From Corallococcus coralloides (lineage in GTDB: Bacteria; Myxococcota; Myxococcia; Myxococcales; Myxococcaceae), in NCBI RefSeq assembly GCF_004104415.1, contig NZ_CP034669.1: 64,000 bases of DNA; one strand, written 5' to 3'. Below the pieces are notes generated by a model. The model made no database searches, had not been told where the DNA came from, and saw only the letters and a program-made list of their open reading frames with translations. How positions within the stretch are numbered: position 1 is the stretch's first letter; the number at the start of each line of letters is the position of its first letter. Made by a program: the position numbers and the translations under genes. Below, piece by piece: positions 50,030-55,136 of this stretch.

Positions 50030-50443
50030 CTATTCCGGCCGTGGCCGCCGGTAAGTGGCGAGAATGACAGGGACCGCCACCCCTGTCACCAGAAGTGCCT
50101 GCGCCAGCAATACCGCCGGCAACGGGCGCTGCACATGCACGTACAGCGAGCGGCCGAGCCCCGCTCCCAACAGGACGCCCGTCAGCGTGCGCACCGCGTT
50201 GGAACCCGAAGCGGGCCGGAAGCGTCCCACCGCCCAGTCCACGAGCGCGGGCAGCGTGAGGGCCAGCACCACCGGCACGTCCCACTCCCACCGCAGCGGC
50301 GCCTTCAGCGCGAACAGTCCGAGGAACACGCCAGCGAGCACCGGATACGTGCCCAGGCACCGCGCGCACACGCGCACGCCCGCGAGCACGTACGTGCGGT
50401 TGTACTCATCCGGGTGATGATGGCTGAGCCAGAACACCGGCAC
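50030..50443 (-). CDS. Small membrane protein (DUF2085-like, CARC motif)
   Basis: After about 45 junk codons the track ORF contains [40 protein letters not shown] plus three further hydrophobic helices. A plausible GTG start at 50443 overlaps the upstream ATPase stop. Confidence 0.45.
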
Positions 50444-51461
50444 CTCCTCCGGACGCGGAAACAGCGGGCCCGTCCTGCACGTCGCGCGAATCCCCTTCGG
50501 CCAGGAAGCACGCCGCGGCGTGGCCTCCGCCCAGGGGATACAGCGGCGGTGACTCGCGGCGGCAGCGCTCCATCGCATGCGGGCAGCGCGGATGGAATGC
50601 GCAGCCGGCCGGCGGCGACAGGGGCGAAGGCGGCTCTCCCGGCAGCAGCAGGCGCGTGCGGGGGTGCTCCGGATCCGGCACCGGCACCGCGGACAGCAGC
50701 GCCTGCGTGTACGGATGGCGAGGCCCTGCGTACAGCGACCGGGACGGCGCCACCTCCACGATGCGGCCCAGGTACATCACCGCCACGCGCGTGGACACGT
50801 ACTCAACAATCTTCAGGTCGTGCGCGATGAAGACGTACGTGAGCCCGCGCTCGCGCTGCAGGTCCACCAGCAGGTTGACGATCTGCGCCTGGATGGAGAC
50901 GTCCAGCGCGCTGATGGGCTCGTCCGCCACCACCAGGTCCGGACGCAACGCGATGGCACGTGCAATGCCGATGCGTTGACGCTGGCCGCCGGAGAACTCG
51001 TGCGGGTAGCGCTGGCGCGCCTCGCGGGGCAGCCCCATGGCGTCGAGCAGCGCCAGCACCTCGTCCTCGCGCGCCTTGCCCTTCGCCAGGCCGTGGATGG
51101 CGAAGGGCTCCGCGAGGATGTCCCCCACCGTCATGCGCGGGTTGAGCGACGCGTAGGGGTCCTGGAAGACGAGCTGCATCTGGCGGCGCAGCGGCCGCAA
51201 TTCGCGCTGCGACAGGCCGGTCAGCTCGCGCCCGGCCACGCGGATGGAGCCGGAGGTCGGATCGATGAGGCGCAGCACCGCGCGCCCCAGCGTGCTCTTG
51301 CCGCAGCCGCTCTCCCCCACCAGGCCCAGCGTCTCGCCGCGGGCCACGTCGAAGGACACGCCGTCCACCGCGCGCACCGTGCCGCGCGTGCGGCCCAGCA
51401 GGCCGCCCTTCACCGGGAAGTGCACCTTCAGGTCGCGCACCTGGACCAGCGGTTCGCTCAT
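50406..51461 (-). CDS. OppF/DppF-type ABC transporter ATP-binding protein
   Basis: It was trimmed to the ATG at 51461 ([15 protein letters not shown]...). Walker A is GESGCGKST, signature [14 protein letters not shown] and Walker [13 protein letters not shown]. The C-terminal oligopeptide-type extension has RHPYTQALL and a CxxxC...C cluster. Its start overlaps the upstream stop (ATGA). Confidence 0.85.
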
Positions 51462-52468
51462 GGCGCGGGCACCGGATGATGGCAGGCGGCGGACTGGCCT
51501 CCGCGCTTCGGCTCCAGCACGGGCGTGACGCGGGCGCACAGCTCGGAGGCGCGGTCGCAGCGGTCGCGGAACGCGCACCCGGACGGCAGCGCGGTGAGCG
51601 ACGGCACCATGCCGGGGATGGCCTTCAGGCGCTGGCGTCCGCCCTCCGCCGCCGCGCCCGCGTCGTGCAGCGACGGGATGGAGCGCAAGAGGCCCGCCGT
51701 GTACGGGTGCGCGGGCCGCGCGAACAGCTCACGCACCGGGGCCTGCTCCACGATGCGGCCCGCGTACATCACCACCACCGCGTCGCAGCTGCCCGCCACC
51801 ACGCCCAGGTCGTGGGTGATGAGCATCACCGCCATGTTCCGCTCGGCCTGCAGGCGCTTGAGCAGCTCGAGAATCTGCGCCTGGATGGTGACGTCCAGCG
51901 CCGTGGTGGGCTCGTCCGCGATGAGCAGCGCCGGGTCGCACGCGAGCGCCATGGCGATCATCACGCGCTGGCGCATGCCGCCGGAGAGCTGGTGCGGGTA
52001 CGCGTCCACGCGCTCGCCGGGCGCCGGGATGCCCACCTGCCGGAGCATCTCCACCGCGCGCTCACGCGCCTGCGCGCGGGTGGCGCCCAGGTGCAGCCGG
52101 ACGCCTTCGCCAAGCTGCTCGCCCACGGTGAACACCGGGTTGAGCGACGTCATGGGCTCCTGGAAGACCATGGCCACGTGCCGGCCGCGCACGCGCCGCA
52201 TCTCCTTCTCCGGCAGGGCCAGCAAATCATCGCCCCGGAAGCGCACCTCGCCGCCCACCACGCGGCCCGGAGGCTGGGGAACGAGCCGCATCACCGACAG
52301 CGCCGTCAGGCTCTTGCCGCAGCCGCTCTCCCCCACCACCCCCAGCGTGCCGCCGGGAGGAACGGCGAAGGACACGCCGTCCACCGCGCGCACCGTGCCT
52401 CGCGGGAGCGACAGCTGGGTGACGAGCCCCCGCACGTCCAGGAGCGGGGCCGGCGCGACGCCGGTCAC
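51458..52468 (-). CDS. OppD/DppD-type ABC transporter ATP-binding protein
   Basis: Walker A is [10 protein letters not shown], signature [14 protein letters not shown] and Walker [13 protein letters not shown]. The C-terminus has AHPYTAGLL and a Cys cluster. Its start overlaps the upstream gene stop. Confidence 0.85.
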
Positions 52469-53493: not shown

Positions 53494-54246
53494 CTACCGC
53501 TTGACCTTGGCGAGGTATTCCTCGCGGGAGAAAATGCCCTTCTCGATGAGCAGCTCCACCATGGCCTTCAGCGCCGCGACCTCCTTGCGCTGGACCTCCT
53601 CCACGCTCTTGAGCAGGTCCGCGGGGCTGCCGGACGGGGCCTGACGGGGGGGCTCCGCCGGGGGGGCCTGACGGGGGGGCGGCGCGGCGGCGGGCTTGGG
53701 GGACATGGCGACGGCGGCGGCCGGGTCCAGGTCCTTGAGGTTCTTCACGACGGTGCGGCCCTGCGCGTCCACCACCTTGAAGTTGGTGTCCGCGTCCTCC
53801 AGCTCCGCCGTCTCCTCGTAGAGGCGCGCGAACGCCCGCGCCACGGAGGTGCGCCCGGCCACGTTGGCCACGATGCGGCACTTGGACAGGGCCCGCAGCT
53901 CGTCCAGCACCCGCACGTTGAGCGGGTCCGACATGGCGACCACCAGCGTCTTGCCGTCGTCGCGCAGCTGCAGCGGCACCACGGAGAAATCGCGCGCCGT
54001 CTGCGCCGGAATCTTGGCCTTCACGTGCGGCGGAACCATCTGCACGGAGTCCAGGTTCACCGCCGGCATGCCCAGCTGCTTCGACAAGGCGCGCACGAGG
54101 ATGTCCTCTGAGACGAGGTTCATCCGGACGAGGATCTCGCCCAGCTTCCCGCCCCACTTGGCCTGCTCGGCGAGCGCCGCCTTGAGCTGGCTCTCCTGCA
54201 GGACGTTCGCCTTGATCAGCAGTTCTCCAAGCTTGATCTGTGCCAT
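53494..54246 (-). CDS. Stand-alone MshEN (GspE N-terminal-like) domain protein, paralogue of the preceding gene
   Basis: IKLGELLIKANVLQESQLKAALAEQAKWGGKLGEILVRMNLVSEDILVRALSKQLGMPAVNL. It has the same two-motif architecture, a Pro-rich linker, and a C-terminal LIEKGIFSREEYLAKVKR similar to the paralogue. Confidence 0.7.
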   Translation of the reverse strand: MAQIKLGELLIKANVLQESQLKAALAEQAKWGGKLGEILVRMNLVSEDILVRALSKQLGMPAVNLDSVQMVPPHVKAKIPAQTARDFSVVPLQLRDDGKTLVVAMSDPLNVRVLDELRALSKCRIVANVAGRTSVARAFARLYEETAELEDADTNFKVVDAQGRTVVKNLKDLDPAAAVAMSPKPAAAPPPRQAPPAEPPRQAPSGSPADLLKSVEEVQRKEVAALKAMVELLIEKGIFSREEYLAKVKR

Positions 54247-54305
54247 GTCGTGCGCGCCATAGTACCCGGTTTGCGCCGGGACGCTGCCTTTCGACGCCTG
54301 GAAGC

Positions 54306-55136
54306 TCAGGAACCCGGCGCTGGGGGCGGCTGAGACACCGGCCCCTCCGGGCGGACCTCCTGGCCCCGCGCGTCGACGTCCACCACCTTCGCCCCCTCGG
54401 GAGCGCCCAGCTCATAGAGCGTCAGGTCCGGGCGGCCGTTGAGGCGGATGTCCGTGTACTTCAGGTCCAGCTTCGTGCCCGCCGAGGCGGCGACCAGGTG
54501 CACCTTGTTGGGAAAGAGCTGGTCGTCCCGCAGCTCGAAGTCCTCGAACGCCAGGTCGTAGCCCGGCACGCCCCGGACCTCGCTCTTCACCACGCGCAGG
54601 TGCTTGGGATCCACGCGCAGTGTCTGTGTCGCCGGTCCCCGCTGGAGCTTGAGCACGTACACGCGCTCCTTCTCGTCCAGCTCCAGGGTCATGGACTCCG
54701 GCGGCAGGAGGGGGACCTGCCCCAGCATCACCGCCACCAGCTCCTCGCTCGGCAGGACGACAGGCAGGAAGCGGGACACGTTCTCCGCGCTGGCCGGGCC
54801 CTGGAGGTACGTGTTCTCCCCCGCCTGGTAGATGCCGAAGCGCTCACCGTCGGACACGAGCGAGGCCACCGGGCGGTTGAAGAAGTCGTAGGTCTCCAGG
54901 TGGATGAGGGCCGGGCGGGTGATGGAGAGGTACGTGGAGAGCGTGCCGCTGCCCTGGGGCGAGTCCACGTGCAGCTTGGCGTCCCCCTCCAGGTTCACGA
55001 CCTTCGCCTGCCGCTCGCGCACGTGCTGGTAGAGCGTCTGGGCGTCCTCGATGCGGCCCTCCGGACCGAACTCAAGACGTTTGGGGCAGGCCGAACAGAG
55101 GAGGACCAGGAAGATTGCGGCGGCTGCGCGGTTCAT
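54306..55136 (-). CDS. Outer-membrane lipoprotein (DUF4292/LolB-like fold)
   Basis: The signal peptide with Cys is MNRAAAAIFLVLLCSAC. The 255-aa soluble domain has a LolB-like beta-rich composition. Confidence 0.6.
   Translation of the reverse strand: MNRAAAAIFLVLLCSACPKRLEFGPEGRIEDAQTLYQHVRERQAKVVNLEGDAKLHVDSPQGSGTLSTYLSITRPALIHLETYDFFNRPVASLVSDGERFGIYQAGENTYLQGPASAENVSRFLPVVLPSEELVAVMLGQVPLLPPESMTLELDEKERVYVLKLQRGPATQTLRVDPKHLRVVKSEVRGVPGYDLAFEDFELRDDQLFPNKVHLVAASAGTKLDLKYTDIRLNGRPDLTLYELGAPEGAKVVDVDARGQEVRPEGPVSQPPPAPGS

Follow-up and report, generated by a model that had tools for sequence, protein, structure and literature searches.

Six genes on the minus strand fill positions 50030-55136 of a stretch of 64,000 nucleotides from Corallococcus coralloides, a member of the Myxococcaceae (NCBI RefSeq assembly GCF_004104415.1, contig NZ_CP034669.1); the whole stretch is called the window in the following. 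In the order of transcription, named A to F here, they encode a DUF4292 lipoprotein, two proteins with the MshEN domain known to bind cyclic diguanosine monophosphate (c-di-GMP), an OppD-type and an OppF-type ATP-binding cassette (ABC) ATPase and, as the last gene, a DUF2085 membrane protein (Table 1). Since the window has 72% GC, genes were picked by their third-position GC content, which is 0.87-0.93, that is of coding type, for those of the six genes that were tabulated. Domains were assigned with Pfam and NCBIfam, and the assignments that an earlier sequence-only reading had proposed (oligo_HPY, MshEN, DUF2085 and DUF4292) were all matched by Pfam. The chaining of the genes by overlapping codons, seen in the same reading, is present as well: C and D share the tetranucleotide GTGA at 52465-68 and D and E share ATGA at 51458-61, while the overlap suspected near 50406-50443 amounts to 32 nt if F starts at the GTG at 50437, which is preceded by a ribosome-binding site, GGAGGAGG, and which yields 135 aa, the same length as the gene call in Myxococcus xanthus. 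The six genes are orthologues of M. xanthus MXAN_4668-4663, B being 84% identical to MXAN_4667 of strain DK1622 and 97% identical to a protein of Corallococcus macrosporus, and gene order in DK1622 is identical, with genes for DUF4292, MshEN, MshEN, OppD, OppF and DUF2085 proteins, an extracytoplasmic function (ECF) sigma factor and a zf-HC2 protein, and then TadE/TadG. The six genes had been proposed to form one undescribed module. Our comparison of loci points instead to at least two separate histories, because D and E are orthologous to the ATPases of a complete importer and are missing from distant operons in which MshEN and DUF2085 genes precede kil genes. One unit would comprise B, C and F, i.e., two ancient paralogous MshEN proteins and a zinc-knuckle membrane protein, as a conserved accessory set of Kil, the Tad-like machine with which myxobacteria kill prey on contact; the other, A, D and E, would be the leftover of an Opp/Dpp-type operon of the order lipoprotein-oppA-oppB-oppC-[MshEN]-oppD-oppF.

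The proteins B and C score 55.7 and 46.9 bits, respectively, against the Pfam family MshEN (PF05157; cutoff 23.1), 64.6 and 58.8 bits against the NCBIfam model c-di-GMP_motif (cutoff 38) and, in the MshEN portion of models for NfrB-type proteins, 61-68 bits. In a sequence search of the PDB, residues 5-145 of B align to bona fide MshEN domains, namely those of Thermus thermophilus PilF (E 1e-38), of PilB from Geobacter and Myxococcus and of Vibrio cholerae MshE. B is built of the MshEN domain (residues 5-150), a disordered Pro-rich linker (150-205) and a confidently predicted C-terminal helix-turn-helix (208-249). In the AlphaFold2 (AF2) model, with a predicted local distance difference test score (pLDDT) of ~90 across residues 6-150, it adopts the fold of a four-helix MshEN_N bundle joined to an alpha/beta MshEN_C part, and Foldseek matched this model to MshE in complex with c-di-GMP (5HTL; template modelling (TM) score 0.83, root-mean-square deviation 2.3 Å), to the GSPII-B domain of PilF with c-di-GMP (TM 0.78) and to the PilB-N:PilZ complex of Xanthomonas citri. 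C carries a long Pro-rich linker and a conserved C-terminal helix of its own. The T2SSE ATPase core (PF00437) found no match in B or C, both of which end in a linker and a short helix, and the two are not members of the GspE/PilB/MshE secretion ATPases.

The description of B and C as paralogous ATPase-less proteins with a double MshEN motif holds for the domain matches and, in B, for the predicted fold; the motif itself deviates at position 1 in both, at position 10 in B and in the spacer and Q24 in C. B keeps the L, G, L, L, L and Q positions and the 5-residue spacer within a double motif of 53 residues. Among 83 unique B-type sequences, L2, G3, L6, L17, L21 and Q24 are present in at least 80 in both motifs, except for L17 of motif II (67 of 83); the 5-residue spacer is found in all but one (82 of 83), position 1 is occupied by K or R, and N or K is frequent at position 10. 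The C-type motifs are more degenerate, with a spacer of 5-8 residues and Q24 of motif I in 25 of 51 sequences. Changes of charged residues were reported to shift affinity less than 5-fold, whereas changes of hydrophobic residues cost more than 10-fold (Wang et al., 2016). Since the hydrophobic motif residues are kept in B and the motif is degenerate in C, binding of c-di-GMP, as judged from these residues, is likely for B and uncertain for C. The M. xanthus orthologues MXAN_4666/4667 are listed among the likely c-di-GMP-binding MshEN proteins (Wang et al., 2016, supplement) and among the 17 MshEN genes of that organism (Kuzmich et al., 2022).

At E < 1e-10 the family of B has 4,487 representatives, and among the best 150 there are many stand-alone proteins of 230-340 aa that match B from end to end. 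The consensus of 30 members, mostly B-type and including C of the window, shows the canonical double motif RLGELLV..G....QL..AL.EQ-xxWGG-RLG.ILV and ends in ...ELLIEKGVFSREEYLARV. Many single-copy members sit in unrelated contexts. The C-terminus of C-type proteins is recognisably the same from the distant clade described below to the window; B-type and C-type termini are each kept across the whole sampled range, and B and C can thus be regarded as two old orthologous groups. The length of C-type proteins varies from 339 aa in the window to 778 aa (L079:10760-12688, L165:8753-10342, L169:6800-9136, with L numbers denoting fetched loci); this variation is confined to a low-complexity, acidic or Pro-rich linker between the fixed N-terminal domain and the fixed C-terminal helix of ~30 aa, so that the linker would look like a tether of variable length.

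The Tad-like genes next to F (Flp, CpaB, two T2SSF and FHA proteins) are Kil cluster 2, which corresponds to MXAN_4648-4661, while cluster 1, MXAN_3102-3108, holds the genes for KilF (an FHA-CpaF ATPase), for the secretin and for the prepilin peptidase (Seef et al., 2021). The missing ATPase gene, in which the sequence-only reading had seen a gap that an energising module might fill, is therefore the known split architecture of Kil. For the comparison, 80 species-representative loci, a sample filled by close relatives and therefore all of Cystobacterineae, were fetched with an alignment of the B family, and the proteins of the window were mapped onto them. Synteny was found throughout: ACAD, TolR and TolQ on one side of A-B-C-D-E-F, and on the other the sigma gene, the anti-sigma gene (where present) and kil genes. 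The conservation across Myxococcota that had been suggested as a check extends at least to the six-gene set occurring in every cultured Myxococcaceae genus sampled, and all Myxococcaceae loci carry the same genes upstream of sigma/anti-sigma and Kil cluster 2.

More distant loci were obtained as metagenome contigs with an alignment of distant family members, and a distant B served as query for annotated contexts. They include an uncultured clade of Myxococcota in which B is 36-41% identical to that of the window and GC is 0.55-0.70. Gene order in this clade is [PilZ]-B-type-C-type-DUF2085-83-aa zinc-ribbon protein-kil genes, with intergenic gaps of ~10-30 nt as expected of an operon. In all ten loci with enough flank the trio runs directly into Kil-type genes, either CpaB-T2SSF-T2SSF-FHA (L097, L100, L128, L144, L165) or TadE-TadG-like-...-Flp (L095, L111, L126, L151, L166); no Opp or sigma gene lies between trio and Kil genes in any of the ten, and no Opp gene within 8 kb. 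A PilZ gene precedes B in 8 of the 10, and the zinc-ribbon gene follows DUF2085 in all ten. An eleventh locus (L168) shows PilZ-B-C-DUF2085 convergent with a TadE block. The Tad proteins of this clade are assigned to the Kil type because they are 51-64% identical to those of the window and are accompanied by FHA proteins. Co-location with kil genes across lineages thus holds for B, C and F; it does not hold for A, nor for D and E, which are missing in the distant clade. The proposal that the module serves the Tad-like machine gains support for the MshEN-MshEN-DUF2085 genes, which precede a CpaB-TadB-TadC-FHA or TadE/TadG block there, and not for the ATPases. The B-C pair is a hub with several recurrent partners, namely DUF2085 with Kil, OppD/F, the ECF sigma pair and the DUF4292 lipoprotein; DUF2085 together with Kil is its commonest partner outside the Myxococcaceae in this sample, and B, C and DUF2085 form the stable core.

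D and E possess intact Walker A, signature, Walker B and H-loop motifs (ADEPI; THDL and AHDL, read from the translations) and a C-terminal tail of the form C-x5-C-x6-C-x17-C, and E scores 416 bits against NF008453, above its cutoff. No OppA/B/C-type gene (SBP_bac_5, BPD_transp_1) was detected across the 64-kb window by Pfam on coding-type open reading frames and tblastn with real OppA/B/C, which agrees with the earlier observation of two complete ATPases with Cys clusters and no permease or binding-protein genes nearby. Likewise, no such genes lie within 10 kb in any locus of the crown genera, by which we mean Corallococcus, Myxococcus, Pyxidicoccus, Citreicoccus, Hyalangium, Archangium, Cystobacter and Vitiosangium. 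The gap between A and B is 60-146 nt in the cultured crown genera and 3.5-6.8 kb in 19 deeper lineages of metagenome-assembled genomes (MAGs) that have both genes in the locus. OppB and OppC are encoded directly upstream of B in 22 of 81 loci, all from deeper Myxococcaceae, and OppA as well in 18 of these 22; Pfam confirmed oppABC between A and B in L056, where oppC stops 12 nt ahead of B, and in L079. The ATPases of L056, L057 and L064 are considered the same genes as D and E because of identities of 71-72%, found for D in all three (72% in L056) and for E in L056 and L064. In Vulgatibacter, which belongs to another family, the order is A-orthologue-OppA-OppB-OppC-one C-type MshEN-OppD-OppF, with 43% identity of the lipoprotein to A and 67% of both OppD and OppF to their counterparts in the window, and with shared flanks (PPIase, DapDH, MaoC, ExbBD). 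A more distant MAG has a lipoprotein gene followed by oppABCDF and no MshEN gene. Rather than an orphan invention, OppD and OppF are, on these comparisons, best described as orthologues of the ATPases of a complete importer found in sister lineages and Vulgatibacter.

As no named crown genus occurs among the best 120 relatives of the OppB of L056 (68-47% identity), the crown group seems to have deleted oppABC; a move of these genes to elsewhere in crown genomes, which was also considered, is not supported by these matches. The idea that OppD/F evolve fast or were replaced had been prompted by identities of 38-47% in one clade. It was rejected as a general statement, given D and E of 67-72% identity inside the full opp operons of L056, L057, L064 and Vulgatibacter; where identity is low, OppB and OppC have diverged to the same degree. 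In one Myxococcales MAG (L167:1-2560 and 8001-15603; L083), the order MshEN-MshEN-(709 aa)-OppD-OppF-sigma is bordered by genes of type III secretion (YscJ, needle, SepQ), with an apparent frameshift in OppF, and the contig carries oppABC without ATPases at a distance of 750 kb.

The lipoprotein A matches Pfam DUF4292 with 52.5 bits, above cutoff, carries a lipobox (...LLCSAC) and scores 45.3 bits against LolB1_Flavo, the NCBIfam model for LolB1 of Bacteroidota, which is below the cutoff of 50. Genes of this type head the opp operons from Vulgatibacter to deep Myxococcaceae, and the lipoprotein of the distant MAG, encoded in the same position, has sub-threshold matches to LolB and DUF4292 (lipoprotein genes outside the window: L082:6330-7094 and L084:6606-7397). 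LolB is thought to be absent from delta-proteobacteria (PMC9963962); A may be an analogue of LolB, or else it may assist the importer by handling lipids or peptides. F scores 39.5 bits against DUF2085 (PF09858; cutoff 25) and consists of an N-terminal HHHP...CARC knuckle and four hydrophobic helices; its single-sequence AF2 model is of low confidence (pLDDT 52). In relatives, the orthologue of F is always flanked by the MshEN/Opp genes on one side and sigma/Kil on the other. For Archangium sp., a 79-fold induction of a DUF2085 membrane protein by methyl jasmonate has been reported (PMC6997564, Table 1).

The chain of six genes that had been read as a single operon stands for B to F, which are coupled, and not for A, which is set apart by 59 nt containing a promoter-like box. 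This box, TACTAT at 54264-54259, lies 7 nt upstream of the adenine equivalent to an M. xanthus transcription start site (TSS), which is strong, vegetative and located 5 nt upstream of MXAN_4667 (Kuzmich et al., 2022, TSS table). A TAnAnT box and the invariant start context GACATGGCA upstream of B are kept across 8 genera. Given this TSS and the conserved box and start context ahead of B, the tightly coupled unit is probably B-F with its own promoter, with A upstream, and the B mRNA is probably nearly leaderless. A consensus scan of the 72% GC DNA for promoters and terminators gave nothing useful and no terminator between F and the sigma gene. The ratio of nonsynonymous to synonymous substitution rates (dN/dS) was determined within the crown group (B, 0.10-0.14; D, 0.14-0.24; E, 0.09-0.30; F, 0.17-0.27). 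Purifying selection acts on all six genes of the window, and D and E are not decaying; they appear to remain active ATPases that are co-translated with B, C and F.

Table 1. Features of the window at and around the six-gene locus.
Feature	Position	Strand	Evidence or remark
A: DUF4292 / LolB-like outer-membrane lipoprotein, 276 aa	54306-55136	-	Pfam; orthologue of MXAN_4668
A-B intergenic region, probable promoter of B-F	54247-54305 (59 nt)	-	-10-like TACTAT
B: stand-alone B-type MshEN protein, 250 aa	53494-54246	-	Pfam/NCBIfam/PDB matches/AF2; orthologue of MXAN_4667
C: stand-alone C-type MshEN protein, 339 aa	52465-53484	-	Pfam/NCBIfam; orthologue of MXAN_4666
D: OppD/DppD-type ABC ATPase, 336 aa	51458-52468	-	ABC_tran + oligo_HPY; four-Cys tail
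E: OppF/DppF-type ABC ATPase, 351 aa	50406-51461	-	ABC_tran + oligo_HPY; four-Cys tail
F: DUF2085 membrane protein, 135 aa	50030-50437	-	Pfam
ECF sigma factor	49318-49998	-	Pfam/NCBIfam; between F and Kil genes
zf-HC2 anti-sigma factor	47873-49321	-	MXAN_4661 orthologue, last gene of published Kil cluster 2
Flp-type prepilin	47552-47854	-	Flp G/xxxxEY motif by eye
CpaB/KilB	46500-47318	-	Pfam
T2SSF platform proteins KilG, KilH	45575-46420, 44671-45561	-	Pfam
FHA proteins	41676-44597, 39900-41648	-	Pfam
TolQ/ExbB and TolR/ExbD, divergent from A	55179-55910, 55926-56381	+	Pfam/NCBIfam; context only

Several features of the surroundings are mentioned for completeness. At 47321-47873 of the window, the anti-sigma gene runs directly into the genes for the Flp prepilin and CpaB; at the equivalent spot (compared with L001:16421-20718), M. 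xanthus and 22 other loci carry a TadE-TadG-TadE minor-pilin block (KilL4/N4/M4). The TolQ/ExbB-TolR/ExbD pair holds its position beside A in all Myxococcaceae loci and in Vulgatibacter. Two further genes nearby relate to c-di-GMP: a gene for a REC-HD-GYP phosphodiesterase, the orthologue of MXAN_4675, is located 6 kb upstream of the locus (60928-62049, plus strand), and an SgmT-like hybrid kinase with GAF, HisKA, HATPase and REC domains and a C-terminal GGDEF remnant is encoded 20 kb downstream (29480-31993, minus strand). A PadC-type ParB-like protein gene followed by two bactofilin genes (23851-26685, minus strand) corresponds to the BacNOP/PadC chromosome-segregation cluster of M. xanthus and is ordinary synteny.

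Taken together, we favour, at roughly even odds (about 0.5), the reading that the locus supplies the Kil machine in trans with a module for c-di-GMP input, which is interleaved with the remnant of an importer. B would bind c-di-GMP through its double motif, with C being less certain, and the paralogue-specific C-terminal helix-turn-helix on its flexible linker would dock on an inner-membrane partner, most likely the DUF2085 protein, the KilG/KilH platform or the KilF ATPase, so that assembly or activity of Kil would respond to c-di-GMP. The trio would in this way take the place of the MshEN N-domain present in cis in PilB, MshE and GspE and not reported for KilF. A PilZ/MshEN relay would fit the PilZ gene at the head of most distant operons, which is reminiscent of the PilZ:PilB-N complex, and the structural match of B to that complex. 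D and E would probably continue to power a peptide permease whose genes lie elsewhere, and B and C may control them. This reading rests on sequence, predicted fold, motif conservation, synteny, selection and promoter position; binding of c-di-GMP, the docking partner, any influence on Kil and what D and E do today are inferred.

The comparison with described systems shows what would be shared and what would be particular to this arrangement. With the N-terminal MshEN (GSPII) domains of MshE, PilB and PilF, B shares the fold, the tandem 24-residue motifs (with K and N at the deviating positions 1 and 10), the 5-residue spacer and the link to a machine of the type IV filament class; unlike these, B and C are free-standing proteins without ATPase core, form two ancient paralogous groups and end in a disordered linker and a C-terminal helix-turn-helix, and their machine would be Tad-like, with an ATPase, KilF, that has an FHA N-domain and no reported MshEN. 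The PilZ-FimX-PilB complex of the Xanthomonas type IV pilus (PDB 7LKO), whose PilB N-domain is matched by the model of B, relays c-di-GMP to a pilus motor through PilZ and MshEN, and in the loci studied here PilZ is encoded directly upstream of B in the eight distant operons mentioned and in L168; however, there is no PilZ gene in the window, no FimX-like protein was seen, and MshEN is not fused to the motor. NfrB and other MshEN fusions, such as the c-di-GMP-activated glycosyltransferase, likewise use MshEN as a portable c-di-GMP input, but B and C lack a fused enzymatic domain, which would imply output through protein-protein contact. D and E have ABC_tran and oligo_HPY domains, catalytic motifs and the four-Cys tail in common with Opp/Dpp (PepT-family) importers with Fe-S-type OppD/OppF and with YejABEF-like systems; they differ in having no cognate OppA/B/C at this locus, and in the full operons of relatives MshEN is inserted between oppC and oppD and a gene for a LolB-like lipoprotein comes first. 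As for Kil of M. xanthus itself (Seef et al., 2021; Tad pili with adaptable tips, 2025), the window carries cluster 2, which the six genes adjoin with the sigma gene in between; the published cluster ends at MXAN_4661, and MXAN_4662-4668 are outside.

A number of observations weigh against the Kil input module. In the window, both motifs of B start with K where R is expected and have N at position 10, a residue that the relaxed [GAS] set of Wang et al. (2016) does not include; C likewise starts with K, its spacer is 6 residues long, and G replaces Q24 of motif I. B-C-OppD/F-sigma occurs without oppABC or nearby Kil genes in L087, L088 and L167, and the Vulgatibacter operon, in which a single C-type MshEN gene sits inside opp, has neither DUF2085 nor Kil genes nearby. 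At L169:5180-11318 the order is DUF4292-MshEN-MshEN (778 aa)-ECF sigma-452-aa protein; Opp, DUF2085 and Kil genes are all missing, which shows that the MshEN pair recurs with the lipoprotein and with the sigma pair independently of them. D and E are coupled translationally to C and F and are retained in several lineages without oppABC, and they may belong to the same complex as B, C and F after all. Furthermore, the Kil papers do not mention MXAN_4663-4668, MshEN, GspE, c-di-GMP or DUF2085, the predation transcriptome lists only A among these genes, as slightly down, and gene adjacency is not interaction.

The position of the MshEN genes exactly between oppC and oppD in Vulgatibacter and the 22 Myxococcaceae loci, together with the overlap of the stop and start codons of C and D, would also suit a c-di-GMP-gated peptide importer, in which B and C would regulate the nucleotide-binding domains of OppD/OppF in the manner of EIIA-Glc on MalK or of c-di-AMP on OpuCA. 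D and E would then serve permeases elsewhere in this genome, and the vicinity of Kil would reflect a co-regulated 'kill and eat' function or plain synteny. B-C-OppD-OppF is kept without oppABC in unrelated lineages (crown genera, L087, L088 and L167), and the remote oppABC of L167 makes pairing in trans plausible. Nevertheless, B-C-DUF2085 of the distant clade and the MshEN pair of L169 have no Opp genes beside them, the cognate permease was apparently lost in crown genera, yet B is 70-97% conserved, and MshEN is not known to us to control any ABC importer; gating of this kind thus seems unlikely. Coupling of C, D, E and F and the maintenance of the block of six in all crown genera, under purifying selection after the loss of oppABC, could be taken further to mean that all six proteins form one complex in which OppD/OppF, controlled by c-di-GMP, would provide energy to the Tad-like machine or to a DUF2085 channel, and the ABC components PilGHI are needed for type IV pili of M. 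xanthus. We consider this very improbable, as Kil already has its own ATPase, KilF, the distant Kil-linked operons lack OppD/F, D and E are plain orthologues of importer ATPases with oligo_HPY domains, and DUF2085 coexists with OppBC in deep lineages and is thus not a replacement permease.

The sigma gene, which follows the B-C unit in all Myxococcaceae loci as well as in L087, L088, L130, L167 and L169, offers another conceivable target. B and C might act as c-di-GMP sensors on the adjacent ECF sigma/anti-sigma pair in the style of RsiG-WhiG, with the sigma factor driving transcription of kil cluster 2; L169, which has sigma and no Opp, DUF2085 or Kil genes, and the lack of a detected terminator between F and the sigma gene fit such control, but in the distant clade DUF2085 and the Kil genes have no sigma/anti-sigma pair between them, and no sequence feature ties MshEN proteins to zf-HC2 anti-sigma factors, and we regard it as decidedly unlikely. 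Slightly less so, though still quite unlikely, is that there is no functional coupling at all, B and C being general c-di-GMP receptors with targets elsewhere and the synteny being inherited in slowly rearranging genomes. M. xanthus has 17-22 MshEN proteins, many single 'B-only' members occur in unrelated contexts, and B-F are not reported as predation-regulated; against this, the order B-C-DUF2085-Kil survives down to ~36-40% identity of B while the surroundings change, and the gaps of the distant operons are operon-like. Returning to the Kil input module, a bolder version would combine it with the importer: the trio, elsewhere with PilZ and the zinc-ribbon protein, would be the missing signalling input of Kil and in Myxococcaceae would also gate the importer ATPases, coupling killing and peptide uptake in a 'kill-and-eat' locus. 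This combination is tentative, and we would call it somewhat unlikely.

The domain families and MXAN_4666/4667 as predicted c-di-GMP binders are already known. The sequence-only reading knew of no described system of this composition; no paper on the gene set was found, neither on MXAN_4663-4668 under either locus-tag scheme nor, in searches on DUF2085 and on Tad and c-di-GMP receptors, on any of these genes in the literature searched, and what falls short of novelty is the pair of MshEN proteins, which are catalogued. Not described in that literature are the conserved MshEN-MshEN-DUF2085 set (with PilZ and zinc-ribbon) beside Kil platform genes and the stepwise dismantling of opp.

Seef et al. 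(2021) expect a signalling cascade upstream of Kil and state that genes of unknown function in the clusters may encode it. The question of how prey contact triggers Kil assembly is touched by the present locus, as three conserved and unstudied genes (five elsewhere) with predicted second-messenger-sensing domains lie directly beside cluster 2. If the Kil input reading is true, this would to our knowledge be the first case of a Tad-type machine receiving an MshEN module in trans, and the idea is directly testable in M. xanthus through MXAN_4663, MXAN_4666 and MXAN_4667. Moreover, the locus appears to record the stepwise loss of an ABC importer operon with its ATPases kept under selection, which bears on the origin of 'orphan' ABC ATPases.

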